Shown here: in pieces, positions 1 to 32,133 of the stretch
How positions within the stretch are numbered: position 1 is the first letter of the stretch
Layout of the letters: every line of letters starts with the position of its first letter
Assembly (NCBI GenBank): GCA_965231035.1
Contig: OZ246409.1
Location: 257,222 to 321,221 of the forward strand
Length of the DNA stretch: 64,000 nt
Direction of reading: 5' to 3'
Origin: an uncultured Muribaculaceae bacterium
Lineage (GTDB): Bacteria > Pseudomonadota > Alphaproteobacteria > Rs-D84
Made by a program: the position numbers and the translations under genes
The notes under the pieces: generated by a model
Databases searched by the model: none
What the model saw: the letters and a program-made list of their open reading frames with translations, nothing else
Told to the model about the DNA's origin: nothing

Positions 1-438
1 ATATGTGCTTGTTCCAACAACCATAGTTGTACAACTTCTGGTTTGTGTTCCTGATCCAACTTCATTACTACAAGATCTTGAAGACGTTTGTCCGGATGTA
101 CACTGGTTAGAGTAAGTAGTACAACTGCCGCTGTCAGCCCAATAAGTTCCATTTACAGTAGCATATTCCCAATATGAACATCCACCCATGGAGCTACCTG
201 CATAATCAGGGCAAAACTGATCAGTATAAGTACATGACGTACATACTTGTTTTTGTAACTGTGATGTTCCACAAGCAACATAACGTGTGTCGCCAGCAGT
301 ACATTGACCGGCTGAACAATTAGTATTTGTAGCAAATGCCTCTGATTCAAAACCAAAAAACTTTGCAAATGGAATTATTATGATTCCAAAAAGAATCGTA
401 AAAATCTTATTATAAAAAAGACCTATTTTTTTTGCCAA
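1..438 (-). CDS. Partial secreted cysteine-rich protein; the C-terminus lies beyond the window start. Probable TTG start at 436-438
   Basis: The minus-strand frame is open from about 438 to position 1. The N-terminus KKIGLFYNKIFTILFGIIIIPFAKFF looks like a signal peptide, followed by a Cys-rich region CSAGQCTAGDTRYVACGTSQ...CTSCTYTDQFCPDY. The track does not list it because it has no ATG and runs off the window edge. A GAGAG-type RBS sits upstream of the TTG. Confidence 0.4.
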   Translation of the reverse strand, partial: MAKKIGLFYNKIFTILFGIIIIPFAKFFGFESEAFATNTNCSAGQCTAGDTRYVACGTSQLQKQVCTSCTYTDQFCPDYAGSSMGGCSYWEYATVNGTYWADSGSCTTYSNQCTSGQTSSRSCSNEVGSGTQTRSCTTMVVGTSTY

Positions 439-455
439 TTTCTCTCTCTTGGGTT

Positions 456-725
456 CTAACTAGAATAACTGCAATTGCTGGTATAAGTATATGTACCATA
501 AGAGTCAGTCATAGTTGTTCCACTTGGAATATAACAGCTGGTTATTCCACCAGTATTATGGTCTATACTTGTACCAGGTGATACGCAAGCTGTACAAACG
601 CCGCCGCTCAAATAATACCCCGTCGCACAACTGGCAATAGTGCAAACATTCAATGTCGGAGTAGCATAAGCAACCCCAGAAATAACCGAAAATAAACCTG
701 TTAAAAATATATATTCTAATTTCAT
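456..725 (-). CDS. Small secreted cysteine-rich protein with a C-x-x-C-x-x-G-Y-Y repeat
   Basis: Track ORF 456..746; the likely start is the internal Met at MKLEYIFLTGLFSVISGVAYA, which is a signal peptide. The mature part is CTIASCATGYYLSGGVCTACVSPGT... Confidence 0.5.
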   Translation of the reverse strand: MKLEYIFLTGLFSVISGVAYATPTLNVCTIASCATGYYLSGGVCTACVSPGTSIDHNTGGITSCYIPSGTTMTDSYGTYTYTSNCSYSS

Positions 726-777
726 AGTACCTGTGAATTTTTGCATAATGAATAGTCCCTTGTCAAATAATAAAATA

Positions 778-1404
778 TTATTTCCATATGTTTAAAGACC
801 CGTTATTATCAGAATACTTCCAACCTAATTCACGAACGGCAGATATTAAATCAGAACGGCTTTTCATCGGGATATTTATAATGATTTCGTCACCAAGAAT
901 TTTTTTAACCTCTAAATTTATTTTTGCAGACTGAAAAGCATGATTTAATGCCATCCAATCTCTTAAGCCATCTGTAATACTAATAGTTACGATAGCCATA
1001 TCAACATTCGAAGTATCTTCTGAAACCAACCAATTTTGAACATCATTTTCATCTAAAAACTTCTTGGATGCTTCTAAGTCCAAAGTTACCTTAATGTTTG
1101 CAGAATATGTATTTGTGGATAAACGTTCACTGTCGATACTAGTTGAAGAAACCAGATTACCAATTGTGGAATCATCTGTATTTTTTATCAGTTCATTAAA
1201 TTTTTCGCTGTCAGAATACTTTGATAAAACATCTGTTGCTATTTGACGCCGAGCCTCGTTAAAGGCCATAATTTTAGCATTTGATGAAGTGTCACTGGTG
1301 ACATTAACAGCCGCAACACCTGTTAAATCAGGTGCAGAAAAAGCAGCAATGGTAAACATTGCAAAAGAACAAACAACTATAAAATTTTTAAAAAATTTTT
1401 TCAT
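778..1404 (-). CDS. Hypothetical exported protein (signal peptide)
   Basis: 208-aa ORF whose N-terminus MKKFFKNFIVVCSFAMFTIAAFSAP is a signal peptide. I recognise no motif. Confidence 0.5.
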   Translation of the reverse strand: MKKFFKNFIVVCSFAMFTIAAFSAPDLTGVAAVNVTSDTSSNAKIMAFNEARRQIATDVLSKYSDSEKFNELIKNTDDSTIGNLVSSTSIDSERLSTNTYSANIKVTLDLEASKKFLDENDVQNWLVSEDTSNVDMAIVTISITDGLRDWMALNHAFQSAKINLEVKKILGDEIIINIPMKSRSDLISAVRELGWKYSDNNGSLNIWK

Positions 1405-1496
1405 ATTGAAAAACCTCTACCGAACATGACCATAGCAATTATGTAAAAAAATTTCAAGCCAGTTTGTTTTCAAACCGGCTTGAAATGAAAAAACTT

Positions 1497-3029
1497 TTAA
1501 AATTTTGCACTTAATCCTACTCGGATTCCCATAGATTTATAAAATGAACTAACTTCATTATCTACGCTGCAAACCCAACCAGGACAGCTGGATTCTAAAT
1601 TTTTTATATTTATAGCTGTTTGATCACCAGTTCCGTCTGTTGCTAACATCTGAGTTTCTGTTTTACCATTGGTTTCCCAAGCAGACAAAATTGAATCATA
1701 TAACCCCAGATAATATTTGGAATTCAAATAGGTTTTTGCGTTTGCCCCGCTGACAGTATAATAATCATACGTCAATCCAAGAGACATATTTATAGAATTT
1801 GTAATCGCTGTTTCCCAATTTGCAGCCAAACCAAGGTGCATTGCTGAACCCATACTTGCTGAATCTTCTACACTTTTAGGATGTTGCCAGTCAAAACGAT
1901 ACGGTTGATCACCAGTTGAATCATAGGCAGGCAAGCCAATTTCAACACGACCATTGATTGTATTATTTTGATTAATATCATAATCTATATCCATAGCAGC
2001 ATAAGGTCCAGCCCAAGTAACTTCATAAGAATGGCTGGTTCCAGGCTGGCTATAATAATATGTTCCACCTGTATCAACCAGTTCCGCATCCGTCCCAATA
2101 TTCATATCACCACCTATGGTATCTCTCCATATAATCTGTTTTGAACCATCAGAATAATGTACAACAACAGCTGGATCACATTGAACTTCACCTGTGGATT
2201 GAACCCTGAAACATGCAGAAGTATCTACTGATAAGCCATAATTTTGTTTTGTTTCTAATTTATAACTAAGACTGCGATAACCCAAAGACGGGGTAAATTT
2301 TGCATTTCCCATTTTAAATGCATTTGGTAAACCAAACCCAGCGTTAAAGCCGAACATACTTCCACCACCGCTGGTTCCAATAGATAATGCATGACCAACC
2401 TGATTACCTATTACGGCACTTGTTCCTGTATTAATCCACTGAGTTATAAAATAACCACCGTTTGTAATATCATCGTCAACCATGGTTGTTTCACCAGATT
2501 GAGTTCCTATTTTAATACCAGCGTCAATTTTTACTGGTGTATTGCTTATGTAAAAATTATAACCGCCAGTTGCGTCAAAAACATTCCAAGCAATATTGTC
2601 ATAGTGCAAAATACTTCCAGAATTCTTCATATCAAATTTCCACATAGCATCTTCTCTGGAAACGCCTGCATTCAAATACAAACCCTGCTCTGGATTACCT
2701 GAACTTGAAGAAATAGAACTTTTTTGTTGTTGATATGAGTATTGTGGCTGAACCCTTTGTTGGTATTGTGGTTGCTGTTGATTCTGATATCTGGAATTGT
2801 AATAATTATTATAGTAATTATTATATCCTGTATTTTGATCAGTATCAGCTGTAGTATCTTCTTCTGAATCTTGGGTTGTATCAGATCCACCAGAATTATA
2901 ATTTGTATTGTATCTTTGCTGAGGTGATTGATAGCTGCCTGTATAATATGTACCTGCAGCATCAGCATTCAAAGGCACAAAAAACAACGAGCAAAGAGCA
3001 AATAACCAACAATTATTATTTTTTTTCAT
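1497..3029 (-). CDS. Outer-membrane beta-barrel protein with an N-terminal Q/N/Y-rich low-complexity region
   Basis: Signal peptide MKKNNNCWLFALCSLFFVPLNADA, then a YNNYYNNYYNSRYQNQQQPQYQQ low-complexity stretch. The alternating beta-strand pattern and the C-terminal ...GIRVGLSAKF ending in Phe are typical of outer-membrane proteins. Confidence 0.5.
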   Translation of the reverse strand: MKKNNNCWLFALCSLFFVPLNADAAGTYYTGSYQSPQQRYNTNYNSGGSDTTQDSEEDTTADTDQNTGYNNYYNNYYNSRYQNQQQPQYQQRVQPQYSYQQQKSSISSSSGNPEQGLYLNAGVSREDAMWKFDMKNSGSILHYDNIAWNVFDATGGYNFYISNTPVKIDAGIKIGTQSGETTMVDDDITNGGYFITQWINTGTSAVIGNQVGHALSIGTSGGGSMFGFNAGFGLPNAFKMGNAKFTPSLGYRSLSYKLETKQNYGLSVDTSACFRVQSTGEVQCDPAVVVHYSDGSKQIIWRDTIGGDMNIGTDAELVDTGGTYYYSQPGTSHSYEVTWAGPYAAMDIDYDINQNNTINGRVEIGLPAYDSTGDQPYRFDWQHPKSVEDSASMGSAMHLGLAANWETAITNSINMSLGLTYDYYTVSGANAKTYLNSKYYLGLYDSILSAWETNGKTETQMLATDGTGDQTAINIKNLESSCPGWVCSVDNEVSSFYKSMGIRVGLSAKF

Positions 3030-3114
3030 TTTTACATCCTACATTCCATCTGTTACATTTTATCATAAAACAGTTGAAAAAAAAAATGATTCTTGTATGA
3101 TTGCTTTCACATTT

Positions 3115-3199
3115 GGGACTATGGCGAAATTGGTAGACGCGCTACCTTGAGGTGGTAGTGGAGCAATCCTTAGGAGTTCAAATCTCCTTAGTCCCACCA
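3115..3199 (+). tRNA. tRNA-Leu, anticodon GAG, with a long variable arm and encoded CCA
   Basis: The acceptor stem GGGACTA pairs with TAGTCCC. The D arm is GCG..CGC and the anticodon stem CTACC/GGTAG has loop TTGAGGT, giving anticodon GAG. A long variable arm, the T arm AGGAGTTCAAATCTCCT, discriminator A and CCA follow. Confidence 0.85.
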
Positions 3200-3210
3200 A
3201 TATTTTTTCT

Positions 3211-3253
3211 TCTTGCCCACATTTTCATAATTTTGCTAACATTATTCTCAGGA
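3211..3253 (+). promoter_or_regulatory. Conserved 5' block shared with the paralog at 26070-26112. Putative promoter TTGCCC-N18-TAACAT lying just before the ATG
   Basis: cttgcccacattttcataattttgctaacattattctcaggaATG versus cttgccctgattttcatatttttgctaatattttacagagaATG; about 80 percent identical over 45 nt. Confidence 0.35.
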
Positions 3254-6200
3254 ATGAAGAAAATTACACTGCTTTTTGCTGTTTGCTTTGCGTTGCTTGG
3301 GATGCAGAAGGTTTTTGCTGATGACAGTACAGACGCTGCACGTGCTGCAACACGAGGAACAGCGACTGTGGTTGTTTCTTCACACCAAAAATCCGAAGAT
3401 TATAATAGTTCTACAGAAACAACTTCTTTGCCCTCGTCTGCTTCAAGGTCTGTTGTTGGTGGCGTTCAAAAAAGCGACTCTTCCCGTGATAGAGCTGTAA
3501 CAAATCGTGATAATTCTATTTCTGATAAATCCAGAACAAGTCAAACAAATCCTGTCACCGTCCCAAGAAGTGCAAGTGTTCAACAGCGAACAGCCAAAAT
3601 TTCTGAAAGATCCGCTGTCAGCCGTTCTGGAATAAATCAAACAAGTAATGTTACAGTTCGCAGTTCACTGGCTGCTCGCAGTGCGTTGAAAACACAATCC
3701 CGTGGAAATATTTCTGCACGTGCAGCGACAATGGATAATGCTCCAAAACAACCTTTACCAGATACAAAATCAACAAAAACAGATAATTCAAAATCATCTT
3801 CTGTTGGTTATAAAAAATGTCGCGAAGTTTATTACGGTTGTATGGATGAATTTTGTGCAAACAAAGACACCCAACTTAAAAGATGCGCTTGTTCATCCAG
3901 AATTCACGACTTTGACTCTGTTAAAAAGAATATGTCCAATGTCGAAGATAAAATTTTAGATTTCAATCAGCGATTAGTCAGTGTGAATCTTGATAAAGAA
4001 GATGCGGCTGCAATATCCAAAGAAACCGAAGGTGAAAAAGCTTATCAACAAACTGATAAATCAGATTCAAAAAGTATTTTGGACGAAATTTCAAAAAAAT
4101 TAAAATCCAGCACAACAGATACAGATTATAACAAAAACCTTTCTGCAATATCGCTTTCGTTGGACACAGATTCGGCATTCGACAGCATAGATTCATCTTT
4201 GGGCGCATCCACAACATCCAAAGAAGGAACAGATCTTTACGATGCCGCGATTCCAGTTTGTCGCGAAATGGCGGCCGAGGTTTGTGATTCAGATGGTGCA
4301 GCAATCGCAGAAAGTGGTTACCAGATGGCAATCGAACAAGATTGTAATACTGTTGCCAAGGCTTATGAAACCCTGCAAGACCAAGCACTGACCAAGGTTC
4401 GTGAAGGAAGCGCATTACTGGATATGTCCAGATTGGATGTTCATCAAAAAGAAAATGCTGATGACATTCTTACCTGCAAAAAGAAAATGCTGACAATGAT
4501 TACAGACAGTTCTGTATGCGGTAAAAATTTAATCGAGTGTCTGGATATTTCTGGAAGATATATTGATCCTTCTACTGGCGAGGCGTTCTTGACTGAAAAT
4601 TTAATTAATATGGAAAAACTTATCACCAGACCATCAGGCAACCAGAAATGGGTCGAAGTTTCAGGAAATTCACAATTCATAACTTACTTGAATTCTAAAA
4701 AGAAATATTTGGAATCATCTATGGAAAGCTGTAAGGACATTGCTGACACTGTTTGGGATGATTTCGTCGAAGATGCGCTGGCACAAATAAAATTGGCCCA
4801 AGAAAAAAAGTTAGAAGACATGCGTCAAAGCTGTACTTCGCTTACTACACAGTGTTTAGCCGATACATCAAAATCAATTTCTGATTTTGACGCGCGCGCG
4901 CTTTCTACTTTTGGTGTAACCGCAGACAAAACAGTTAATGAAATGTGTGCTGGAATAAAAACCGCCTGCACTGCTTTACTGGAATCAACTGGTGGCGATT
5001 CGGATTGGGTCGGCGGTATGAGTGAAATTCAAACAGATAAAACATACGACACACTTATTCAGACATGCCGCGAAGTTGGCAAGGCTTGCATTATCCAAAC
5101 CTGCAAATCTGTTTCAGGAAACTTTGGATTGTGCGAAAGCGTTGATAAATCAGTTAACAGAAAATCCATTATTAATCGTGCTGCTTGTTGGTCTGACGTA
5201 ATTAAATGCGTGGCTAATGCTGGCACCAGTTCTATTGACTCGATAATGAAAAAGTTTTCCAAGACCCCCAGTTCCAGTGGCGGAAACTTTTACACAGAAA
5301 ATTATGGTGTGCAACCAACAGTAAGTAATTCTACAAGTGGCGCTGGATGTGATCCTACTTCATCAACAACCCCTCAAAATTGTATTTATGATATTTGCAC
5401 CGAGTGTGGTCAGTCTGGTCAGCCAGATTGTGCGACTTGCAGATTGGCTGAAAAAATATGGGGCAACTGCGAGTTTATACCAACAAAAACATTAGATATT
5501 GTTCCACAAAACAAAATCAAGGCGACAATTTCCAGCACCGAAACATTGCTGTCTTGGTTTGATACGAACACTGGAACAACCGATTCTGCAGAAAGCTGTC
5601 GTGATACATCATGCGGTGCCGGATTCAGGGCATTTACAACAGATGGGGTAACAACATGTTCAAAGGCTTCTGACTTTTCGTCTGACAATTTACTTTGCCC
5701 AACAAAGCAATTCTTGGTATCCCAACCTGCTTGGAAGAACTGTTGTTCTACAGAAGAATATGATGATTTTGGAAATTGTTGTCAAGATACACCAATTACA
5801 GTTTCAGGGATATCAATCTGCAGAGAAACTTCCGATATCAATGTTTTCCCTGTTGCCTCGTTTACACTCAGCAGTGACAGTAGTGTTTACAAGGCCGGGA
5901 CAAATATCATGGTTTGTGTTGGTGGGACAATAGATGTTACAACCCCCGAAACTGCTTGGCCATCAGGAAGGAATGTTAAATGTAATGGTGGACATTTTGT
6001 TATTATCAATACCACTTATGGAACATATGTCAGCCCTTATTTCAACCTTGACGATATTGGTAATCCAACAACGACGACGAATCAACATCCAACCTACCCA
6101 AGCAATTATTATTCTTTGGATTATGATGCAGCTACAAACACAAGTATAAATTGCATATATAACTTCGAAAGTAATACTTGGAATTCCTCTACAGGAAGTG

Positions 6201-6262
6201 GTGTATGTGATAAAATAACCGGGTACCCGACTAACAACAATAATCTATTTATTAAGTATTGA
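3254..6262 (+). CDS. Large secreted cysteine-rich protein, family member 1 (CMDxFC / CGxDFxNC family)
   Basis: Track ORF 3152..6262 begins with GTG inside the tRNA, so the real start is MKKITLLFAVCFALLGMQKVFA at 3254, a signal peptide. An S/T/R-rich region is followed by CREVYYGCMDEFCANKDTQLKRCACSSR, and VCGKNLIECLDISGRYIDPSTGEAF matches paralog 26113. The C-terminal third is Cys-rich. Confidence 0.7.
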   Translation: MKKITLLFAVCFALLGMQKVFADDSTDAARAATRGTATVVVSSHQKSEDYNSSTETTSLPSSASRSVVGGVQKSDSSRDRAVTNRDNSISDKSRTSQTNPVTVPRSASVQQRTAKISERSAVSRSGINQTSNVTVRSSLAARSALKTQSRGNISARAATMDNAPKQPLPDTKSTKTDNSKSSSVGYKKCREVYYGCMDEFCANKDTQLKRCACSSRIHDFDSVKKNMSNVEDKILDFNQRLVSVNLDKEDAAAISKETEGEKAYQQTDKSDSKSILDEISKKLKSSTTDTDYNKNLSAISLSLDTDSAFDSIDSSLGASTTSKEGTDLYDAAIPVCREMAAEVCDSDGAAIAESGYQMAIEQDCNTVAKAYETLQDQALTKVREGSALLDMSRLDVHQKENADDILTCKKKMLTMITDSSVCGKNLIECLDISGRYIDPSTGEAFLTENLINMEKLITRPSGNQKWVEVSGNSQFITYLNSKKKYLESSMESCKDIADTVWDDFVEDALAQIKLAQEKKLEDMRQSCTSLTTQCLADTSKSISDFDARALSTFGVTADKTVNEMCAGIKTACTALLESTGGDSDWVGGMSEIQTDKTYDTLIQTCREVGKACIIQTCKSVSGNFGLCESVDKSVNRKSIINRAACWSDVIKCVANAGTSSIDSIMKKFSKTPSSSGGNFYTENYGVQPTVSNSTSGAGCDPTSSTTPQNCIYDICTECGQSGQPDCATCRLAEKIWGNCEFIPTKTLDIVPQNKIKATISSTETLLSWFDTNTGTTDSAESCRDTSCGAGFRAFTTDGVTTCSKASDFSSDNLLCPTKQFLVSQPAWKNCCSTEEYDDFGNCCQDTPITVSGISICRETSDINVFPVASFTLSSDSSVYKAGTNIMVCVGGTIDVTTPETAWPSGRNVKCNGGHFVIINTTYGTYVSPYFNLDDIGNPTTTTNQHPTYPSNYYSLDYDAATNTSINCIYNFESNTWNSSTGSGVCDKITGYPTNNNNLFIKY

Positions 6263-6408
6263 TACCAAGCTGTTGCTTGTGGAAATAAAAACAGAATCGG
6301 TGGGGGAAAACCGGCGATAAAAAGAATCCGTATTTCGAATCTGTTACCAGAATTATTAGCTATATTCAATCAGTTATAAACAATTTAATAATATTCTTGA
6401 CTTGTTCC

Positions 6409-6436
6409 TTGACAAATATGATGTTCGGACTATAAT
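6409..6436 (+). promoter_or_regulatory. Sigma-70-type promoter TTGACA-N16-TATAAT
   Basis: Consensus -35 and -10 hexamers are seen directly. AAGGAG lies 7 nt upstream of the ATG at 6478. Confidence 0.45.
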
Positions 6437-6477
6437 GTATATACAGAAACATAAAAACACACAAAAAGGAGTGTAGA

Positions 6478-6900
6478 ATGTTTAAAAAGACTTTGGCTTA
6501 TAATATAAAGAAAGCCTACATAATGATAGGGTTGGCTTTTGGTCTGGTACCAACTTTCACAGCTTGTGAAAAGAATGATGACCAACCACAGCATTATAAT
6601 ACAACTTATAATTTTGTCAGAAATGTTTTGCCAGACACTGTATCAATGGCAAAAGATGGTAAAAACGAATTAGTTGACACTGTATTTTATAAATTTGACG
6701 GAACATCTTTGGGTATGCCTTCAAGAGTGTTGTTAAGATATATTGGTCCAGCATCAAGAGCAGCATCCACCAAATTTAATGGTGGTAAATCTGTAATAAA
6801 TGGTTGCGCGATTGACACCAAAGCGGACAGTACAACCATTACCAGTATGAATTATAAATTTATAAATTCTTGGGTTGGCGGTTGGTCTATGGGTAGATAA
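6478..6900 (+). CDS. Hypothetical lipoprotein
   Basis: Signal peptide with lipobox LVPTFTAC; strong RBS. No recognisable domain. Confidence 0.5.
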   Translation: MFKKTLAYNIKKAYIMIGLAFGLVPTFTACEKNDDQPQHYNTTYNFVRNVLPDTVSMAKDGKNELVDTVFYKFDGTSLGMPSRVLLRYIGPASRAASTKFNGGKSVINGCAIDTKADSTTITSMNYKFINSWVGGWSMGR

Positions 6901-6987
6901 TTATTAAAAACACTAAAAAATTAAATCTGATGCTTGCATCAGATTTTTTTGTTGCTTAAAATAACAAAACTTCTTAAAATTCAAATT

Positions 6988-7956
6988 ATGATTAAAAAGA
7001 TTTTTTTGATTTTTGTTTTATTATTATCTGGTTCGAACGCCTTGGCAGCCGATGAGTGCTCTATATCAAATGCCACAAGTGGTTGTCTTACTGGCAAATA
7101 TTGTCTATATGATTCAACAGGAAACAGTTGTATGCCATGCCCTACTGCATATCCAAATTCATTAGTAAGTAATAATAATGAACAAACTGATTGTTATGCT
7201 TGTGCGACCAGAACCATTGCAAATGGAACTTGGGCGCCCGTCAGTCCTATATATTATCCAACAACACCAACAACATGTACCTATAACTCTGAGAATATTG
7301 CATGTACTTATATGAATTATCCTGTTCCGGATTCAACCGAGACATATGGATACAGATGTGCATTTATGATAATATTAGACGATTCCACCGGTTCCGGTGG
7401 CAGTGGAACAATATATGAAGTTTCTGGTGTAAAATATTTGAGCTCATCCGGAAATCAAATTGAAAATGTCGCAAAACCAATAAAAAGCAACAGCGTTTTT
7501 ACTGGGTATTATTCAAGTGGGAGTTCAATTGCCCAGATACCTGACAGTGGCATTTTACCAGGCAATACATATTTTGCTACCTCGACAACGCTTTTTGCAC
7601 ATTTTTCAACTTGTTCTGGGACTGGCGAACAAGGAACAATTACAAGTTCTGTCAGTGATAACACCTGTTATTATTTTATAACATGTAATGCAGGATACGA
7701 AAATACAACGAATTATAACCTTGCCACCAAAACAACGAACAGCTCTTTGTCTTGCACGCCTTGTTCTGCGGGATACTATTGCCCCGGGGGTGAACATCAA
7801 GCATGTCCTAAGGGTACAACCAGCAGTGGGGGTACAACCGCTACATCAACTGCCGCCTGCCACATGCAGGGTGGGGAAAATGGAACAAGATTTTGTGATT
7901 CTAATGGATGTTTCTATTTGCCAGATACCGCAACAATAACATCTAACTTACTATAA
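6988..7956 (+). CDS. Secreted cysteine-rich protein with ephrin-receptor-like/furin-like C-x-P-C-x-x-G-Y-Y repeats
   Basis: The internal start MIKKIFLIFVLLLSGSNALAA is a signal peptide. Motifs are CTPCSAGYYCPGGEHQACPKGT, CNAGYENTTNYNLA and SCMPCPTAYPNS. It resembles the protein at 456-725. Confidence 0.55.
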   Translation: MIKKIFLIFVLLLSGSNALAADECSISNATSGCLTGKYCLYDSTGNSCMPCPTAYPNSLVSNNNEQTDCYACATRTIANGTWAPVSPIYYPTTPTTCTYNSENIACTYMNYPVPDSTETYGYRCAFMIILDDSTGSGGSGTIYEVSGVKYLSSSGNQIENVAKPIKSNSVFTGYYSSGSSIAQIPDSGILPGNTYFATSTTLFAHFSTCSGTGEQGTITSSVSDNTCYYFITCNAGYENTTNYNLATKTTNSSLSCTPCSAGYYCPGGEHQACPKGTTSSGGTTATSTAACHMQGGENGTRFCDSNGCFYLPDTATITSNLL

Positions 7957-7994
7957 TCAACAAACCGTAATCATTATTCAATACAAATCTATCC

Positions 7995-9288
7995 TGTCCA
8001 ATATATTGGACACTTTTCGAGTGATATATTAAAGCTATGTCAAAATATATGTACATTATTCCATTGTCCAATATATTGGACAGGTTTATTTTTATTCTTA
8101 GAATTTATAATCAAATTCATAATCAGATTTATAATCTGATCTATAATCAAGACATATTCATATTATGCAGTTGTCCAATATATTGGACAAGTTTTTAAAT
8201 AACACATCAAGATTATAAAAAAGCAAACGGAAATAAAATATGAAATGTCCAATATATTGGACACTTTTTGATTGATTCGTTGATACTGTAAAAAACACAA
8301 AAACAAAAGGTGTATTGTCCAATATATTGGACAAGTTTTTAAATAACACATCAAGATTATAAAAAAGCAAACGGAAATAAAATATGAAATGTCCAATATA
8401 TTGGACACTTTTCGAGTGATATACTAAAGCTATATAAAATTATGTGCTTAAAAAACAAAAATAAAAGCCTTGATTGTCCAATATATTGGATAGGTTTGCT
8501 TAAATATATACGAATAAAAAGCAAAAATGAAAACCTTGATGTCCAATATATTAGACACTTTTATAGTGACACACTGAAGCTGTATCAAAACATATGTACA
8601 TTATTCCTTTGTCCAATATATTGGACACTTTTTGAGTGATATACTAAAGCTATATAAAATTATGTGCTTAAAAAACAAAAATAAAAGCCTTGATTGTCCA
8701 ATATATTGGATAGGTTTGCTTAAATATATACGAATAAAAAGCAAAAATGAAAACCTTGATGTCCAATATATTAGACACTTTTATAGTGACACACTGAAGC
8801 TGTATCAAAACATATGTACATTATTCCTTTGTCCAATATATTGGATAATCAAATTATTACCTATTTTCTACCTTAAATTTTATGTCAAAAAGATTTAGCA
8901 ACCGCAAAATTGTTATAAAACTTGGATTACCCGACGGCGACAAAATATTATAAAAACTGCTGCGCGAGATTCCCAAAATTTCAGGAATACTTTGTCTACG
9001 ATGGTGCGTTTTTGCTATTTCCATCAGTATATATTTTATTTTTTCTATATCTAAATTATCCAAAGCGATAGATAACTCAGATATCAAATATTGGTCAATT
9101 TCTTTATTATCAATAAAAAATTCACGGTTTATTTTTGGCTTTGATAAAAGTGAAAATCGCATAATTATTCTCCATAAAATATACGCGTATTATACAGTTG
9201 TCCAATATATTGGACAAGGTTATTTTTATTTTCAAAACCTATAAAATAAGGAATATACTTATTATAAACCTGTCCAATATATTGGACA
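7995..9288. repeat. Array of 14 copies of the 18-bp perfect palindrome TGTCCAATATATTGGACA (four copies are variants GGATA or TTAGACA) embedded in nested tandem duplications of about 144 bp and 220 bp
   Basis: Copies start at about 7995, 8065, 8172, 8246, 8316, 8390, 8475, 8540, 8610, 8695, 8760, 8830, 9199 and 9271. The 100-bp blocks 8171-8270 and 8315-8414 are identical, as are the 240-bp blocks 8390-8629 and 8610-8849. The region is AT-rich and has no credible ORFs apart from 8857-9162. Confidence 0.85.
8857..9162 (-). CDS. HigA-family HTH protein (putative addiction-module antidote, COG3636-like). It is orphaned, with no toxin gene adjacent
   Basis: The C-terminus GISRSSFYNILSPSGNPSFITILRLLNLFDIKFKV matches the conserved GMSRESLYRALSGEGNPTFSTVLKVLKALGLKL end of HigA/antidote proteins. 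A GGAG RBS is present, and the TATAAT -10 at about 9190-9195 lies 3 nt from the palindrome copy at 9199-9216. Confidence 0.7.
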   Translation of the reverse strand: MRFSLLSKPKINREFFIDNKEIDQYLISELSIALDNLDIEKIKYILMEIAKTHHRRQSIPEILGISRSSFYNILSPSGNPSFITILRLLNLFDIKFKVENR

Positions 9289-9404
9289 GGTTTATATTAT
9301 GCTTTTACACAGGCACGGACACAGATTATATAGATATAATACATATGTATGAATATTTTTGTCACCATGTGGTTAATTCCCCAGGATGACAATAAGAAAA
9401 AATT

Positions 9405-9929
9405 CTAAAAAGTTACATTTATAGTTTTTATAACTTTGTTTATTTCTTTCATTTCAGAAGATGCAAACTTTCCCAGAACCCAATCGGCTGGATCCATTTG
9501 TAATTCAACATCACGTGGATGACCAATTCCGATTCTGATTCTGTGATATTCGTTTCCAACAAATTTATCAATTGATTTTATACCGTTGTGCCCTGCACTG
9601 CCGCCGCCTGTTTTTTCACGAATCGAACCAACTGGTAAATCCATGTCGTCGTGTATCACAACCAAATTTTCAATTGGTATTTTGTAAAACTGCATCAATG
9701 ATTGAACAGGCACACCGCTGTTATTCATAAAAGTCTGAGGCTTGGCAAAAATAACTTTACGACCATTGACATCAACACTGGTTGTCAAAGCATCTTTTTC
9801 TTTTTTCCACGTAACATTTTCACCCGCCAAAAAATCCACAGCAACAAATCCAACATTATGTCTTGTCGCAGAATACTTGTCACCAGGATTTCCCAGACCA
9901 ACTATTAAAAGAGGTTTATTTTCTTGCAC
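9405..9929 (-). CDS. pth: Peptidyl-tRNA hydrolase
   Basis: LLIVGLGNPGDKYSATRHNVGF and HNGIKS motifs are present. The probable GTG start precedes QENKPLLIVGL; the track ORF extends upstream to 10034 through a non-conserved leader. Confidence 0.8.
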   Translation of the reverse strand: MQENKPLLIVGLGNPGDKYSATRHNVGFVAVDFLAGENVTWKKEKDALTTSVDVNGRKVIFAKPQTFMNNSGVPVQSLMQFYKIPIENLVVIHDDMDLPVGSIREKTGGGSAGHNGIKSIDKFVGNEYHRIRIGIGHPRDVELQMDPADWVLGKFASSEMKEINKVIKTINVTF

Positions 9930-9976
9930 ATTTAACTCTTTATATTCTATTATATTATTACACAAAGGAGAAAAAT

Positions 9977-10516
9977 ATGAAATTAAAAACAACCGGTCTT
10001 TTGACATTGGTTTCTGTAATGGGTTTTGCCGCAAATGCTAATGCTGGCATGTTGGTAGATTTATATGCTGGCGGTACATTTGGATCTGGCGGAATGACCG
10101 TGTTTAATGATAAAGATAAAATCAGCGACACCAGCACCAGCTATGGTGCAGTTTTTGGTATTGATATTCCTGTTGTTCGTGTCGAGGCTGAATATAATTA
10201 TTTGAATGGCAAAGATGTAAATATGAGCTTGGGCATGTTGAATGCTTATTTGAAAATGCCTGCAACAGTTATTAAACCTTATCTGGGTGTTGGTGTTGGT
10301 ACTGCTTTTGGTGGAAAATATGCAGATACAATTGATATTGATACAACAGCCGCTTATCAAGGTATGTTGGGTATAACTTTTGACTTGCCACAATTGCCTG
10401 TAAAGTTTGATGTCGAAGGTCGTGCGGTTTATGTTCCAGACATTATTGAAGTTATGACAATAAAACCAGATATGTTGAATTACGATCTGCGCTTGAAAGT
10501 TCGTTATGTATTTTAA
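9977..10516 (+). CDS. Small outer-membrane beta-barrel protein (OmpA-like/Omp25-type barrel)
   Basis: AAAGGAG RBS; signal peptide MKLKTTGLLTLVSVMGFAANANA; about 150 aa of alternating hydrophobic residues ending in RYVF. Confidence 0.6.
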   Translation: MKLKTTGLLTLVSVMGFAANANAGMLVDLYAGGTFGSGGMTVFNDKDKISDTSTSYGAVFGIDIPVVRVEAEYNYLNGKDVNMSLGMLNAYLKMPATVIKPYLGVGVGTAFGGKYADTIDIDTTAAYQGMLGITFDLPQLPVKFDVEGRAVYVPDIIEVMTIKPDMLNYDLRLKVRYVF

Positions 10517-10569
10517 ATAAACTTATCAGGGCAGTAAAACTGCCCTGTTTTGACTTATAACTATTAACT

Positions 10570-13299
10570 ATGCTGACACTGATTGACGGAAACTCTTTAC
10601 TGTTTCGTGCTTACTACGGAGTGCATTCACGCCTGACACGGGGTGATGGAACGCCTACGGGTGCTGTCTATGGTTTTTACAGCATGCTGTTACCTATTCT
10701 GGCGGCTGCATCGCCTGATGATTTCTTTGTATGTGTTTTTGATGCTGCACGCAAAAATTTCAGAAATGATATTTATCCAGAATACAAAGCAAACCGAATC
10801 GACCCACCCGCTGATCTAGTTGCCCAAATGGAATTGGCGCGCGAAGCTGCTCGTTCTATGGGTATGCCTGTGCTTTCAATTGCTGACGTCGAGGCTGACG
10901 ATGTTATCGCAACGTTATCAAATATTTTTTGCACCCATGACGGCGGAACCAGAATTATTACCAGTGACAAAGATTTAATGCAGCTGGTATCACCTTGTAT
11001 ATTTTTATTCGATGGAATGAAAGAACTTGATATCCGTGAACCACAAGTTTTTGAAAAATTTGGGGTTACCCCAGACAAAGTTATCGAAGTCCAAAGTTTA
11101 ATTGGCGATTCGTCAGATAATGTCCCAGGCGTTCCAGGAATTGGACCAAAGAAAGCAGCCGAACTGATAAATAAATTCGGAACACTGGAAAGGTTGTATG
11201 AAAATATCAAGCAGGTTGAAAATGACCGAATCAGAAATCTGCTGATTGAACACGAAAATAAGGCACGCGTTTCAAAACAACTTGTTACTTTGAAAACTGA
11301 TGTTGATTTGAATGGTATGAAATTATCGCACTTCAGGTTTGATAAAAAAAGCGCAATGGAATTTGTAAAGGATAAAATAGAAAGCAATTCTTTGGCTGCA
11401 CGAATCGAAAAAATGTTTCCAGCTGATATGGAACTTTCTTTGTCTGCGGCAGAAGAAAAACTGGAGATAAAAACCAAAGCACCCGTACGGGATGCAAAAT
11501 TCAAAACTATTCTGAATGAAAAAGATCTGGTCGAATTTTTATCAACAATAAAAGATGTTTTGGCTATTGATACTGAAACAACCGGTCTGGATCAAATGCA
11601 GGATAAAATTGTTGGTATATCTTTGGCATCCAGCTCTGAATACGGTGTTTACATTCCGATTCGACACAAAAACAGACAGACTGATTTATTCGGTGACAAA
11701 GAAATTATTGCTCCAACACAACTTTCTATTGATTCCGTAAAAAAGAAACTGTGGCCATTCTTGGTAAATCAAAAAATTATAAAAATTGGGCATAATCTGA
11801 AATACGATTTGCACATTTTGGCAAACGAAGGATGGGATACAGCTGCTATTGAACCGATTGATGACACAATGCTGATGTCTTATGTTTTGCATGGCACTTT
11901 GCATACACACGGATTGGACGAGCTAGCACGTGTTTATTTGGATCATGAAAATATTTCTTTTGATTCACTTTTTGCACCAAAGGATAAAGAAAAACATTTT
12001 GATACTGTCAGTATTGATAACGCCGCACCATATTCGGCCGAAGATTCTTATATTTGCTTTGCGTTGTATGAATTATTCCGCGAAAAATTAAACAAGAATG
12101 AAAAGTTGAAAAAGTTATATGAAAACTGCGACCTGCCCTTGCTACCTATTTTACTAAAAGTTGAACGCAATGGTGTTATGGTTGATAAAAATAAACTGAA
12201 CCATCTTTCTAAAATCTTTCATATACAACTGACAACTTTGGAAAAAGATATTTGGGGTATGACTGGACACGAGTTTAATATCGCCAGCCCAAAGCAATTG
12301 GCGACTGTTTTATTCGATGAATTAAAATTATCAGCAAATAAAAAACGTTCCACCGATGCGGATGCATTGACCGAATTGATGGAACATCATCCAATTGTTG
12401 AAAAGATATTAAATTGGCGGTCTATTGCGAAGTTGGCAGGAACTTACGCGGACGCTTTGCCGCGCCAAATTGGAAATGACGGTCGCATTCATACAACATA
12501 TTTACAAACCAGTACAAATACTGGACGACTTTCCAGTCGCGATCCAAACCTGCAAAACATTCCAATTAAAACCGAACTGGGTGAAGAAATTCGCAAATGT
12601 TTTGTTGCACCAGAAAATCGTGTTTTAATTTCCGCAGATTATTCTCAGATTCAATTAAGATTACTGGCAGATGTTGCAGATGTAAAAATGTTCAAAGAAA
12701 CTTTCCAAAAAAATCTGGATATTCATGAACAGACTGCACGTAAAATTTTCGGAATTGCTGCCGATTCACCCGTACCTAAGGATTTACGTCGTGCTGCCAA
12801 AACTGTAAACTTTTCAATTATATATGGAATATCATCTTTTGGATTGGCGGCACAGTTAAATGTATCCCGGTCCGAGGCACAAAATATTATAAATTCTTAT
12901 ATGGCTGGGTTGCCTGAAATTAAAAACTATATGGAAAAAATAAAGGCTTTTGTGACCGACCATTCATGTGTTTATACCCCATGGGGTCGCAGAATAGAAT
13001 TACCAGATATAAAAAATCCACGCCTGCGTGCTTATGCACTGCGTGCTGCGATTAATGCGCCAATTCAGGGTTTTGAAGCTGACCTGATGCGATTTGCAAT
13101 GGTAAAAATCGATAAGAAGCTTGAAAACAATCCGCATATAAAAATGATTATGCAGGTACACGATGAAATGGTATTCGAATGTGACCGTGATATGGCCGAA
13201 GAGTTTGCAAAACAAATAAAATCTGAAATGGAATCTGTTGCAAAACTTTCTGTACCACTGTTGGCTGAATACAACATTGATACATCTTGGGGAAAATAA
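10570..13299 (+). CDS. polA: DNA polymerase I
   Basis: 909 aa. It contains the 5'-3' exonuclease, the 3'-5' exonuclease (DTETTGL) and the polymerase motifs RRAAKTVNFSIIYG and QVHDE. Confidence 0.9.
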   Translation: MLTLIDGNSLLFRAYYGVHSRLTRGDGTPTGAVYGFYSMLLPILAAASPDDFFVCVFDAARKNFRNDIYPEYKANRIDPPADLVAQMELAREAARSMGMPVLSIADVEADDVIATLSNIFCTHDGGTRIITSDKDLMQLVSPCIFLFDGMKELDIREPQVFEKFGVTPDKVIEVQSLIGDSSDNVPGVPGIGPKKAAELINKFGTLERLYENIKQVENDRIRNLLIEHENKARVSKQLVTLKTDVDLNGMKLSHFRFDKKSAMEFVKDKIESNSLAARIEKMFPADMELSLSAAEEKLEIKTKAPVRDAKFKTILNEKDLVEFLSTIKDVLAIDTETTGLDQMQDKIVGISLASSSEYGVYIPIRHKNRQTDLFGDKEIIAPTQLSIDSVKKKLWPFLVNQKIIKIGHNLKYDLHILANEGWDTAAIEPIDDTMLMSYVLHGTLHTHGLDELARVYLDHENISFDSLFAPKDKEKHFDTVSIDNAAPYSAEDSYICFALYELFREKLNKNEKLKKLYENCDLPLLPILLKVERNGVMVDKNKLNHLSKIFHIQLTTLEKDIWGMTGHEFNIASPKQLATVLFDELKLSANKKRSTDADALTELMEHHPIVEKILNWRSIAKLAGTYADALPRQIGNDGRIHTTYLQTSTNTGRLSSRDPNLQNIPIKTELGEEIRKCFVAPENRVLISADYSQIQLRLLADVADVKMFKETFQKNLDIHEQTARKIFGIAADSPVPKDLRRAAKTVNFSIIYGISSFGLAAQLNVSRSEAQNIINSYMAGLPEIKNYMEKIKAFVTDHSCVYTPWGRRIELPDIKNPRLRAYALRAAINAPIQGFEADLMRFAMVKIDKKLENNPHIKMIMQVHDEMVFECDRDMAEEFAKQIKSEMESVAKLSVPLLAEYNIDTSWGK

Positions 13300-13315
13300 G
13301 ATTAAATTTGATATT

Positions 13316-13345
13316 AAAAAATCCGCCAAATGGCGGATTTTTTAT
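13316..13345. terminator. Intrinsic terminator (A-tract, ATCCGCC...GGCGGAT stem, T-tract); bidirectional
   Basis: aaaaaATCCGCCaaatGGCGGATtttttt sits between convergent polA and the dsbA-like gene. Confidence 0.55.
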
Positions 13346-13364
13346 TTATTCAAATCGCAATGAA

Positions 13365-14189
13365 TTATTTGTTCAAAGCATCATTGATTTGTTCAAATGG
13401 GATTGCACCTGGGAAAGCACGATCGCCAATGATCAAGTATGGTGTTCCATTGATTTGGAAACGTTGTGCCAATTCGCGAACTTGACCCAATTCACGTGCA
13501 ACAACTGGACCATTCATGTCAGCTTCCAGCTTTTTAACATCCAAACCAACATCTTTTGCCATTTTCATAACGTTTGCATGAACTTTTTCACCAATTTTTG
13601 ATTGATCTTTCAAATCAGCTTGTGAATAGAATTCTTTGCTCATCATCATTGCATCAAGTGCGGCAGCTTTGTCATCACCCTGCATTTTTGCAGCAATAGA
13701 TGCGCGTGCAGCTGCATCAGACAATGGTCCATGGATCGAGAAGTTCTTTAAAACGATGCGAACATCTTTGCGAGAATCCAATACACGTTTCAGCTCTGCA
13801 TGAACACGGCGGCAATATGGGCATGAATAATCGCTGAACAAGAAGATTGTCTTGTCTGCGTTAACATTTCCCAAAACTGGAGCATCAGCCATCATTTTGT
13901 CCATATTATCACGAACATAGCTGCGAACCATTTTGGAACTTTCCATATTTTTCTGTTCCTGCATACCTGTTGCCATTTCTTGCAAGATAGCTGGGTTTAC
14001 AGATGTCAGATAGTATGGAGTCCACAGACGGCATACAGAACCAGCAATTAATATAATCGCCAGAATTTTTGTTGAGTTTTTAACAAGATCCATTCTGGAA
14101 TCCTGAGCTTTGCTATTTTGTTTGATCAGTTTGCCACCGAACAAATAAAGAGCTATACCCAAAACCAGAACCAGTATTGTCCAAGTCAT
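13365..14189 (-). CDS. DsbA-family thiol:disulfide oxidoreductase with an N-terminal membrane anchor
   Basis: CPYC active-site motif in SDYSCPYCRRVHAELKRV; thioredoxin-fold context; N-terminal TM helix. Confidence 0.7.
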   Translation of the reverse strand: MTWTILVLVLGIALYLFGGKLIKQNSKAQDSRMDLVKNSTKILAIILIAGSVCRLWTPYYLTSVNPAILQEMATGMQEQKNMESSKMVRSYVRDNMDKMMADAPVLGNVNADKTIFLFSDYSCPYCRRVHAELKRVLDSRKDVRIVLKNFSIHGPLSDAAARASIAAKMQGDDKAAALDAMMMSKEFYSQADLKDQSKIGEKVHANVMKMAKDVGLDVKKLEADMNGPVVARELGQVRELAQRFQINGTPYLIIGDRAFPGAIPFEQINDALNK

Positions 14190-14276
14190 AGTTTTTCTCC
14201 TTTTAAGTTGAACGAAAGGAATCCTAGCAAATTTTCACGAAATCGCAAGAGAAAATATTTTATATATTTTTGTCAA

Positions 14277-14939
14277 CTATATCTTTAAGGTATTTCTGGA
14301 CGTAGGCAGAATTCCGCAGTGGTGTTCATAAATTTTCAAAAGAAATTTTTTCATAACTTCCAGATCCAAAGGCAGTCTAAAAAGTTTATCTAAATATGGT
14401 TTTGCACATTCATCACACACTGCACGACCCGTGCGGGGGGACAAATAATTCAAATTTTCTGTTTTATGGCAATTTGAACATTTGGTTAAATCCAAAGCAT
14501 ATCCCAATTCTTGCAATAAATTCACTTCCCAAGACAAATAAATATTTTTTATTTCATCTTTACCTTCTGTCATTGAAAGTTTTTTTAACATTTCATCTGT
14601 GTGAATAAACAAATCAGAATATGTTTCGCGCTCTGGCAACAAAGTTGCTATTAATGAAAAAGCAGAATTCATACAGCTTAATTTAATTGGATTCATCATT
14701 AAAATCGCACCCAGATTTTTTTCTGATTCCCAATGAAAAACTCCCAGCTGGGAATCCACACGCGCATTCCAAGATGAATTTCCAATTTGCCCAACCAGTG
14801 CCCTATTCTTTTTTGCAACTTGGGCTCCACGAATCATTCCACACAGCAAACCAAAATCACGTGTAAAAATCCGCGCAACACTATCGCGTTCCCCAAATGG
14901 TCGAAGTTCAATTAAAATTCCAACAGATTCCATTTTCAT
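14277..14939 (-). CDS. recO: DNA repair protein RecO
   Basis: The N-terminal OB-fold region is ELRPFGERDSVARIFTRDFGLL and the C-terminal zinc finger is CSNCHK...CDEC. Confidence 0.65.
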   Translation of the reverse strand: MKMESVGILIELRPFGERDSVARIFTRDFGLLCGMIRGAQVAKKNRALVGQIGNSSWNARVDSQLGVFHWESEKNLGAILMMNPIKLSCMNSAFSLIATLLPERETYSDLFIHTDEMLKKLSMTEGKDEIKNIYLSWEVNLLQELGYALDLTKCSNCHKTENLNYLSPRTGRAVCDECAKPYLDKLFRLPLDLEVMKKFLLKIYEHHCGILPTSRNTLKI

Positions 14940-14971
14940 GGTTTGATTATAAAATTAAAAATATATAAAAA

Positions 14972-15004
14972 GAATAAAAAAATCCGCCATTCGGCGGATA
15001 ATTT
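14972..15004 (-). terminator. Intrinsic terminator downstream of rplI
   Basis: ATCCGCCattcGGCGGAT stem with a flanking A/T tract. Confidence 0.5.
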
Positions 15005-15670
15005 TTATTCTGCAACTTCAGCTTTTTTTGCCCTTGGCTTTCTGGCTGGTTTTTCAGATTTTTCTTCTTCTGATTTTTCAGCCTTGGCAGCCTTGGCAGT
15101 TTTTGCCGGCTTTTCAGATTTTTCTACAACTTCTTCTGTTGTTGATTTTTCTTCTTCGACTTCTTCAACTTTTTTGGTTCCAAAAGTCAAAACTTTACCA
15201 GCAACCAAAGCATCAATTTCATCTTGGGTCTGTGCGACATAAACTTTGACAGGAACAATTACATCTGCATGTAATGCTACTTTGGTATCAAAGCTGCCAA
15301 CTGTTTTGATTGGTGTGCCCAACATAACTTGTGCTGAATCAACGCGTACACCTGCAACACCTGCCAACATACGTGCAATATCGCGACTGGATACAGAACC
15401 ATACAATTGACCTGTATCACCTGCCTGACGAATCATATGCAATTTTGCATTCTTGACTGCATCAACATAACCTTCAGCAGTTTTCTTGGCTGCTTCTTGT
15501 CTGGCGTGCAATTCTGCTTTCTTGGATTCAAATATTGCAATGTTTGCTGCAGACCAGCGCATAGCTTTGGCATTTGGCAACAAATAGTTTCTGGCAAATC
15601 CTGTTTTAACTTCGACTGTATCGCCGATGTTTCCAAGTTTGTTTATTTTTTCTGTTAAAATTATTTTCAT
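15005..15670 (-). CDS. rplI: 50S ribosomal protein L9 with a C-terminal extension of about 70 aa that is rich in E, K and A
   Basis: MKIILTEKINKLGNIGDTVEVKTGFARNYLLP. The tail is KSEKPAKTAKAAKAEKSEEEKSEKPARKPRAKK. Confidence 0.85.
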   Translation of the reverse strand: MKIILTEKINKLGNIGDTVEVKTGFARNYLLPNAKAMRWSAANIAIFESKKAELHARQEAAKKTAEGYVDAVKNAKLHMIRQAGDTGQLYGSVSSRDIARMLAGVAGVRVDSAQVMLGTPIKTVGSFDTKVALHADVIVPVKVYVAQTQDEIDALVAGKVLTFGTKKVEEVEEEKSTTEEVVEKSEKPAKTAKAAKAEKSEEEKSEKPARKPRAKKAEVAE

Positions 15671-15834
15671 TTTATCTGTCCTTTTTTATAAGTTAGGGAT
15701 AATCCCAAATATTTAGTTTTTAAATTTATTAGAAATTAAATTATGTGAGATGATTGTAAGCGTCTCATCAGACCCGACGTGTACAAGTGCTACACGAGGG
15801 TCTGTGAACGCAACAAGCGTCCACAGAATTTAAT

Positions 15835-16062
15835 TTAACCCAGGTTGTTTCTTACGAATGGTACTAATCCCAAATGACGTGCACGTTTAATAGCCTGAGC
15901 CAATAAACGTTGATCTTTCTGAGAGGCACCACTGATACGAGATGGAACGATTTTACCACGTTCTGTAATATAGTGTCCCAACATCTTGGTATCTTTATAA
16001 TCAATAACCTTGCCCTTTAAAGGGTTTGATTTTTTACGATAAATTGCTGCACGAACTGCCAT
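15835..16062 (-). CDS. rpsR: 30S ribosomal protein S18
   Basis: [30 protein letters not shown]. Confidence 0.85.
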
Positions 16063-32110: not shown

Positions 32111-32133
32111 AAAACCGCCAAATGGCGGTTTTA
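32108..32133. terminator. Bidirectional intrinsic terminator
   Basis: aaaaAACCGCCaaatGGCGGTTtt. Confidence 0.45.

Follow-up and report, generated by a model that had tools for sequence, protein, structure and literature searches.

Restriction-modification (R-M) controller proteins such as C.AhdI and C.Esp1396I are small Xre-type helix-turn-helix (HTH) dimers with a symmetric, central-TATA operator that overlaps the −35 box of their own promoter. Repeated sites are known from F sopC, with 12 repeats, and from CRISPR arrays, with 23–50 bp repeats, unique spacers, and cas genes; attC is an imperfect palindrome of ~57–141 bp carrying R''/L''/L'/R' boxes and a GTTRRRY motif. Further points of comparison are repetitive extragenic palindromic (REP) and bacterial interspersed mosaic elements (BIMEs), including REP-RAYT units (REPINs) (PMC3116915, PMC3337134), and integron cassette arrays, clusters of attC sites lacking integron-integrases (CALINs), and Acinetobacter pdif modules (PMC6449649, PMC13141974). 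Within a 64,000-nt stretch of contig OZ246409.1 from an uncultured alphaproteobacterium, referred to below as the window, 14 copies of an 18-bp palindrome, TGTCCAATATATTGGACA, form an array around a gene for a 101-aa HTH protein. The palindrome is probably the operator of the HTH protein encoded inside the array, and the array a binding platform for this repressor; we place more confidence in the predicted binding and autoregulation than in any array function. Sequence comparison suggests that HTH genes and palindromes form matched pairs of an undescribed family, with single accessory genes enclosed between them in uncultured Alphaproteobacteria, and a full-text literature search for the palindrome 18-mers found no description.

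Array anatomy and the HTH gene

The palindrome has exactly 14 matches at ≤1 mismatch in the window, all within 7995–9288, and no further copies at up to 3 mismatches; shuffles preserving dinucleotides gave a mean of 0.06 matches and a maximum of 1. Nine copies are perfect: sites 1–6 (7995–8012, 8065–8082, 8172–8189, 8246–8263, 8316–8333, and 8390–8407), site 9 (8610–8627), and sites 13 and 14 (9199–9216 and 9271–9288). Three are GGATA-ending variants (sites 7, 10, and 12, at 8475–8492, 8695–8712, and 8830–8847), and two are TTAGACA-ending variants (sites 8 and 11, at 8540–8557 and 8760–8777). Successive start positions lie 70, 107, 74, 70, 74, 85, 65, 70, 85, 65, 70, 369, and 72 bp apart, the 369-bp gap being the location of the HTH open reading frame (ORF) at 8857–9162 on the minus strand. 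The first-pass annotation, made from the letters alone, was right about the 14 copies, the 65–107 bp spacing with one 369-bp gap holding the HTH gene, and the two TTAGACA copies, whereas its ten perfect and two GGATA copies become nine and three. The array is AT-rich, with a GC content of 26% compared with 36% for the window.

The gene at 8857–9162 (minus strand) encodes an orphan HigA/HI1420-type HTH protein of 101 aa, assigned to Pfam PF21716 and PHROG 4268. Its score of 32.2 bits against PF21716 (dnstrm_HI1420, "probable addiction module antidote protein") exceeds the gathering cutoff of 27, whereas the same score of 32.2 bits against NCBIfam TIGR02684 falls under the equivalog cutoff of 53.7, making the protein a family member and not an equivalog. 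The match to PHROG 4268, "transcriptional repressor," has an E-value of 1e-9, and a PDB sequence search returned nothing at E < 0.1. Homologs number 39 at 58–97% identity, all from metagenomes or metagenome-assembled genomes (MAGs) labelled Alphaproteobacteria or Rickettsiales. The clade is isolated: 4 of 1.84 billion cluster representatives match at E ≤ 1e-10, followed by a gap to ordinary HI1420 proteins.

Related loci, designated here by L numbers, place the gene under selection and apart from a toxin. Between the window gene and its counterpart in L007 the nucleotide difference is 23%, with more of the changed codons synonymous (45) than not (26), which indicates purifying selection; the flanking 18-mers are nevertheless identical. 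No ORF for a toxin partner is present at 9163–9404 on the strand of the HTH gene, and none is recognizable in ~23 related loci, where the neighbouring small ORFs of L007, L010, L013, L200, and L201 have no Pfam match. PADLOC reported nothing for the HTH protein and a weak PDC-S09 match for one nucleotidyltransferase encoded beside a related gene.

Promoter geometry and palindrome classes

Both palindromes upstream of the HTH gene are followed at 17 nt by a perfect TATAAT. On the strand of the gene, the proximal copy reads cTTGTCC-AATATATTGGACAACTG-TATAAT, then GGAG and ATG. This copy, site 13, is a putative proximal operator that begins 54 bp ahead of the ATG in gene orientation and covers the −35 box and spacer of a predicted promoter, P1 (9189–9217, minus strand; −35 TTGTCC at 9212–9217, 17-nt spacer, −10 TATAAT at 9189–9194). 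The ribosome-binding site GGAG (9170–9173, minus strand) lies 7 nt ahead of the ATG at 9162, and GGAG or AGGAG aligns with it in related loci. Site 14, a putative distal upstream operator, overlaps a promoter-like sequence, P2 (9261–9289, minus strand; CTGTCC at 9284–9289, 17 nt, TATAAT at 9261–9266).

This geometry is conserved: TTGTC[CT], 17 or 18 nt, and TATAAT (once TATACT) occur in 22/23 related loci, with the palindrome starting 50–76 bp before the ATG. A second upstream site ~64–85 bp from the first recurs in L006, L007, L163, L168, L169, and L178, and a palindrome stands 3–25 bp after the HTH stop codon in every related locus that extends that far; its counterpart in the window is site 12, 9 bp past the stop. 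At four of the 12 downstream sites, a hexamer that agrees with the −10 box at 5/6 positions follows 17 nt away in gene orientation, namely AATAAT at sites 2, 9, and 12 and CATAAT at site 3 (all minus strand). Across HTH-linked islands, a good −10 box accompanies 24/49 sites with a gene start within 15–130 bp and 19/209 of the others.

Palindromes of the general form TGTC[C/T]-NN-TATA-NN-[G/A]GACA fall into six or more classes (AAT, TTT, ACT, and ATT, with TGTCC or TGTCT arms), each of them symmetric. The classes pair with variants of the putative recognition helix: GISRSSFYNILS with TGTCCAATATATTGGACA, GISRPGFYNILS with TGTCTAATATATTAGACA, GLSKSGFYNMLS with TGTCCTTTATAAAGGACA, GISKSGFYKMLS with TGTCCACTATAGTGGACA, GISRSGFYRILS with TGTCTATTATAATAGACA, and GISRPGFYKILS with TGTCTACTATAGTAGACA. 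Each locus holds one class, shared even by sites several kb from the HTH gene, and on one 69-kb contig two HTH paralogs are each flanked by their own class. Among the matches listed, the MAG encoding the RPG variant has mainly TGTCT..AGACA copies elsewhere, several of which are one repeat and so non-independent, while two other MAGs have almost only TGTCC..GGACA copies. Loci of one class are phylogenetically related, so the co-variation counts are likewise non-independent events. The co-variation is good but indirect support that the HTH protein reads the palindrome.

A few sites are asymmetric. Hybrid copies of TGTCCATTATAAAGGACA or its reverse complement, which join an ATT half-site to a TTT half-site, occur at L200:1118, 11201, and 11336, L163:3696, L170:818, and L162:3473, and hint at heterodimers or a further specificity class.

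It is the promoter geometry, together with the way class tracks helix variant, that leads us to read the palindrome as the operator of the HTH protein. The placement over the −35 box and spacer in 22/23 loci and the co-variation with the helix thereby lend support to the operator or titration array that the first-pass annotation had envisaged. The protein would bind each palindrome as a dimer and, because the upstream palindromes overlap both HTH promoters, should shut off its own transcription by repressing the tandem promoters P1 and P2. The array most likely acts as a high-capacity platform that buffers or titrates the repressor, and could cooperate with the upstream operators. If binding is true, nature would have provided, in these related loci, at least six similar repressor/operator pairs whose specificities are set apart by a few helix residues and by two or three base pairs in each half-site. 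Such a set would amount to a readout code already in place and might supply orthogonal regulatory parts.

Several findings weigh against the operator reading. Joint inheritance of site, gene, and site as one unit could account for part of the co-variation, and changes that are symmetric also leave a hairpin intact. For the HTH protein, AlphaFold gave a model of moderate quality (pLDDT 73), with which Foldseek found nothing significant in the PDB, the matches to HipB and C proteins being weak. The palindromes show no helical phasing, their spacings corresponding to 6.2 to 10.2 turns. Copies dispersed in related genomes lie mostly at gene 3′ ends, not at promoters, and a transcription-factor regulon would not usually show such near-perfect identity. 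Over ~82 kb of this genome (the window plus ~9 kb past each end), no palindrome occurs outside the array module and no target gene besides the HTH gene was found, leaving a regulatory role without an obvious gene to regulate here.

Duplication, insertion, and related loci

Array units have been duplicated, lost, and reordered. A 220-bp three-site unit is tandemly duplicated at 8390–8829, with 1 mismatch between 8390–8609 and 8610–8829 and spacer types C-B-A on the plus strand. A second duplication, at 8171–8439, has a 144-bp period, with 98 bp exact (8171–8268 and 8315–8412) and ~125 bp at 91%. Two pairs of blocks earlier annotated as identical are not quite so: 8171–8270 and 8315–8414 (100 bp) differ at 1 position, and the 240-bp blocks (8390–8629 and 8610–8849) differ at 3, the true tandem period being 220 bp. 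Within spacer type F, a 12-bp tandem repeat, AATTTATAATCA, occurs four times (8102–8150); the homologous spacer in L006 measures 101 nt compared with 89 nt here, 12 bp longer.

In the direction of the gene, the downstream spacers run A B C A B C D E D F A and thus represent six types. The order in L006, a related lineage with a 97% identical HTH protein, is G B D E E G B C B F, and it is this difference between lineages that reveals the reordering. All 53 detectable spacer matches have the same orientation and none is inverted, which points to unequal crossing-over or slippage between direct repeats and not to recombination at the symmetric site. Array sites retain 96.5–97.7% consensus, compared with 86% identity for homologous spacers. 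Units of types A and F are similar to the HTH promoter and leader, with a 5/6 −10 box still in place at 17 nt. The 12 downstream copies are probably gene-less amplified operator units, built and reshuffled by unequal crossing-over between palindromes. Gene-less arrays beside HTH genes recur in other lineages and classes, in L163 (18 sites), L168, L169, L007, and L180.

The HTH gene and an array of matching sequence are present in four independent metagenome assemblies and so are not an artefact of one assembly. A comparison of array length between strains, as had been proposed at the outset, revealed one 220-bp unit fewer in L002, in addition to the spacer reordering in L006; L005 was dropped from it because a 100-N scaffold gap (L005:6375–6474) lies inside its array. 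The 220-bp duplication is also where contigs L003 and L004 stop; with the unit missing from L002, this makes the exact copy number less certain than the existence of the array. Such arrays break short-read assemblies, and their copy numbers are not to be taken at face value, the comparative data coming entirely from metagenome assemblies, where repeats are error-prone.

The array and HTH gene constitute a module of ~1.4 kb (7957–9404) between the stop codons of a Cys-rich protein gene (6934–7956, plus strand) and pth (9405–10034, minus strand), with site 1, 39 bp past the stop of the Cys-rich protein gene, as its outer boundary. In two relatives (Pth 70–74% identical), pth is directly convergent with the Cys-rich protein gene, with neither HTH gene nor array; the two genes overlap by 4 bp in L202 and lie 34 bp apart in L204. 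The surrounding order of recO, dsbA, polA, an OMP gene, pth, the Cys-rich protein gene, and, further on, Pom is common to the window and both relatives. The module is therefore an insertion, and in that sense the earlier idea of a mobile-element relic is supported. An occupied array, set by this insertion where pth and a surface-protein gene converge, would block read-through between the two genes. In its favour, a T-run directly follows 9 of the 12 array sites on the plus strand, compared with a background of 13%, a count that includes duplicated units, inflating its significance; on the opposite strand these T-runs read as A-tracts upstream of the −35 box.

The neighbourhood has features of its own. 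The module sits in a cluster of Cys-rich secreted or surface proteins without Pfam match (456–746, 3152–6262, and 6934–7956), which a Pom-type outer-membrane protein gene (1497–3029) adjoins; the Cys-rich gene beside the array is far more divergent between relatives than the flanking housekeeping genes. The start of pth is ambiguous, the ORF from TTG at 10034 encoding 209 aa and gene callers across assemblies giving 200, 186, or 174 aa. The nearest tRNA gene, tRNA-Leu at 3115–3199, is not adjacent, and integration at a tRNA was rejected on this ground. A known RNA family was likewise rejected, as an Rfam scan of 7000–10500 gave only two chance-level miRNA matches. Ordinary hairpins of the window are bidirectional and terminator-like and reuse, to a notable degree, a common core of A-run-(T)CCGCC..GGCGG(A)-T-run (13315–13344, 18603–18629, 19591–19611, 32111–32132, 53540–53573, 56436–56463, 58977–59006, and 59916–59941).

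Many related loci are cassette-like. A site-gene-site-gene-site pattern is found in L010, L013, L162–166, L170, L173, L174, L176, L178, and L200, where palindromes follow stop codons at 3–15 bp and a terminal site closes the series even ahead of a convergent gene. The cargo encodes an MFS transporter, a GNAT acetyltransferase, two APH-type kinases, a nucleotidyltransferase, a chorismate mutase, and P-loop kinases, as well as Nmad3, SDR, serine hydrolase, DUF4440, and ASCH proteins and unknowns. Between HTH loci in unrelated contexts, DNA similarity spans ~400 bp and ends at the two flanking palindromes, and between its two upstream sites L163 has 2 kb that L007 and L160 lack, made up of sites, an MFS gene, and further sites.

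These loci raise the alternative, which we consider unlikely, that the palindromes are recombination sites like attC or pdif at the boundaries of mobile single-gene cassettes. The array would then be a CALIN-like stack of empty or decayed cassettes, the HTH protein an accessory or regulatory factor, and the recombinase encoded elsewhere or of an unrecognised kind. The site-gene-site architecture with sites just past stop codons and before convergent genes, cargo that resembles integron cassettes down to its small unknowns, homology ending at both palindromes, the 2-kb L163 insertion, and the insertion of the module here all agree with it, and the perfect identity of dispersed copies suggests a site-regenerating process. 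Yet the surroundings of the sites show no recurring integrase, transposase, or Xer-type site structure: a recurrent recombinase is absent from the 25 most frequent of 123 Pfam families in the 117 ORFs beside dispersed sites, and an integrase is absent both from these families and from the 25 most frequent among 50 window ORFs. The site itself is a perfect palindrome of 18–20 bp with unconserved flanks; attC was rejected on these grounds, and the 28-bp pdif/Xer site (11-bp XerC arm, 6-bp spacer, 11-bp XerD arm) because conservation ends at 18–20 bp and does not extend to the bases that would form the outer arms. A symmetric site should permit inversions, in contrast to the uniform orientation of the spacer matches, and the promoters of cassette genes are their own, with the site as a component. 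BLAST of the array spacers against all other loci gave no matches; with no homologs beside real genes elsewhere, the spacers were rejected as remains of real cassettes.

A broader account, which we offer tentatively as possible, is that HTH gene and palindromes represent a cassette system of a kind previously undescribed, in uncultured small-genome Alphaproteobacteria. Orientation-free 18-bp palindromes would serve at once as −35 box, operator, and module boundary, in at least six classes each with a cognate mini-repressor. Spread and exchange would occur at the palindromes through an unrecognised recombinase or through short-homology recombination aided by bound protein or a cruciform, and arrays like this one would be stacks of emptied cassettes. 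If the predicted binding holds, the HTH protein would be an antitoxin-type regulator that, minus its toxin, has come to control or delimit accessory genes in reduced genomes. The site-gene-site architecture, with integron-like cargo and no known recombination machinery, raises the question of how accessory genes are packaged and moved in these uncultured bacteria.

Two further observations concern these loci. A recurrent element of ~105 bp adjoins palindromes, with the motif aaaaaGACATATAYCGGACATAG and a CCCGC...GCGGG-TTTT terminator hairpin at its end (L013:6312–6438, 9982–10116, and 11879–12006; L165:1840–1966; L200:8208–8336; L163:5343–5447; and L148 from 7432); it may represent a small RNA or another site for protein binding. 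In the L007 prophage, the terminase large-subunit gene is apparently split into parts at 3840–4445 and 10571–11464, on the same strand and 6.1 kb apart, that match the N-terminal ATPase (phrog_38 positions 276–459) and the C-terminal nuclease (482–713). The intervening segment carries an HTH gene, a CI-like double-HTH repressor, and a DnaB helicase, and is bounded by family palindromes at 4528 and 10497.

Dispersed copies were scanned in one genome per species, and the figures refer to the matches listed. At least 60 singletons lie in unrelated taxa, consistent with chance, and at least 60 matches lie in a few termite-gut Alphaproteobacteria or Rickettsiales MAGs, on up to 11 contigs per MAG. 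Of 61 listed copies between housekeeping genes, 42 have a gene end no more than 130 bp away, 12 separate genes that converge, and 1 separates genes that diverge; flanks with A-runs/T-runs, or long inverted ones, are common. That the 18-mer might be a genome-wide dispersed repeat unrelated to any adjacent gene had been named in the first-pass annotation as a finding that would refute its own reading; the palindrome is indeed dispersed between genes in related MAGs but is tied to the HTH family by class co-variation, and in the ~82 kb of this genome that were read it is not dispersed.

The dispersed copies bear on the alternative that the palindromes are REP/BIME-like structural repeats, acting as hairpins, terminators, or mRNA stabilisers, with no regulatory role and a secondary association with the HTH gene. 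We regard this as improbable, although the preponderance of gene ends, the A-run/T-run or inverted flanks, and the make-up of the array as a mosaic of few linker types, as in BIMEs, fit it. The dsbA/polA junction has a palindrome in L063 and an ordinary GC-rich terminator in the window, and at the orthologous pth junction the 34-bp gap of L204 (L204:5562–5595) holds aaaaaaaTGTCTACCTGGGTAGACAgttttt, a bidirectional terminator-like palindrome with the outer arms of the family, TGTCTACCTGGGTAGACA, and another centre. A 34-bp perfect palindrome at 9263–9296, 109 bp past the pth stop, extends site 14, and as RNA it folds at −21 kcal/mol (z = −7). The bare 18-bp hairpin, at −7.6 kcal/mol, is weak beside the GC-rich terminators of this genome, and terminal cassette sites have no T-runs. 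A structural role needs neither class uniformity per locus nor agreement with the HTH helix variants, the gene between the palindromes is the HTH gene with no RAYT-type gene present, and this genome has no copies outside the module in the ~82 kb covered.

Solitary palindromes in the termite-gut MAGs have surroundings of their own. Many are centred in long inverted repeats with tandem 7-bp repeat arms (L051, L058, L063, L069, L075, L081, L084, L089, L090, L094, L102, L111, and L141); the arm repeats are GGTCAGT-, TTAGCAA-, ACGCGAA-, or TTTACGA-like, varying between MAGs and loci. L101:4840–5010 (MAG Lab288P3bin136) holds a ~190-bp element like a miniature inverted-repeat transposable element, with terminal inverted repeats GGGAACTGTTAAGATAATAG and two adjacent palindromes of different classes, TGTCTAATATATTAGACA and TTGTCTGCCATAGTAGACAG. 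Its end sequence also terminates contigs L123, L128, L135, and L137, which suggests a multi-copy element.

Comparison with known systems

With 12 tandem palindrome units beside the gene of a DNA-binding protein, inferred to be autoregulated, the array resembles F sopC, and L007 has an HTH gene of 86% identity within a prophage-like region. A centromere-like partition site (sopC/parS) or iteron origin of an integrated former plasmid or phage is nevertheless a highly improbable identity for it. No ParA, ParM, TubZ, or Rep is present among the called genes and Pfam matches of the window or the related loci, and the protein is HigA/HI1420-like, not ParB or ribbon-helix-helix. A replication origin was rejected because neither DnaA boxes nor GC skew indicate one: near the region there is no DnaA-box cluster, only two DnaA-like boxes with 1 mismatch each (9056 and 9368), and cumulative GC skew continues without a switch. 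The palindromes, 65–107 bp apart, are not phased direct iterons. Close homologs are absent from isolated phages and plasmids, which have only distant matches at 30–38% identity, and from IMG/VR, where a profile search for the HTH protein found only distant relatives and scans with four palindrome classes gave single chance-level matches and no arrays. The earlier parS-like or iteron proposal thus finds no backing here; compared with sopC/parS, the array further differs in its chromosomal location, the lack of a partition ATPase, and irregular unit lengths. The earlier judgement that the array is not a CRISPR stands, given an 18-bp repeat, spacers in 6 recurring families, and no cas genes in the Pfam tally of the window.

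Like integron cassettes and pdif modules, the related loci bracket single accessory genes, among them drug-modifying-enzyme and toxin-antitoxin types, with a short conserved palindromic site and shuffle them between contexts; unlike them, the genes here stand in either orientation with their own promoters, no inversions were seen, and no integrase is among the most frequent Pfam families. With REP/BIME elements and REP-RAYT units, they share extragenic palindromes at gene 3′ ends in related MAGs, mosaic linkers, a gene flanked by cognate palindromes, and several co-varying classes per lineage. They differ in that the flanked gene encodes a 101-aa HTH protein instead of an HUH/Y1 transposase and that the site is a perfect 18-mer doubling as a promoter −35 box, not dispersed in the ~82 kb read.

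The candidate operator resembles in layout the C-boxes of R-M controller proteins, with a central TATA and a palindrome over the −35 of the own promoter, the fold matches being weak. In contrast to C proteins, the HTH protein belongs to another sequence family, has many more sites, and has no adjacent R-M genes: the module neighbours are pth and the gene of a Cys-rich secreted protein, no methylase-like ORF is among those at 1–16000, and the Pfam tally records one N6_N4 methylase among the window ORFs.

The likeness to HigA/HI1420 (PF21716, COG3636) antitoxins comprises the Pfam family, a small HTH protein, and a palindromic operator in the own promoter, which implies negative autoregulation and is present here as sequence geometry in 22/23 loci. 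Unlike these type II antitoxins, the protein is encoded without a toxin gene in ~23 related loci, and its sites are amplified into arrays of up to 18, flank unrelated cargo, and are dispersed in related genomes; amplification of operators into arrays is unusual for this protein class. The array system thus shares its protein family with HigA/HI1420 and, beyond that membership, has the defining features of none of the systems compared.

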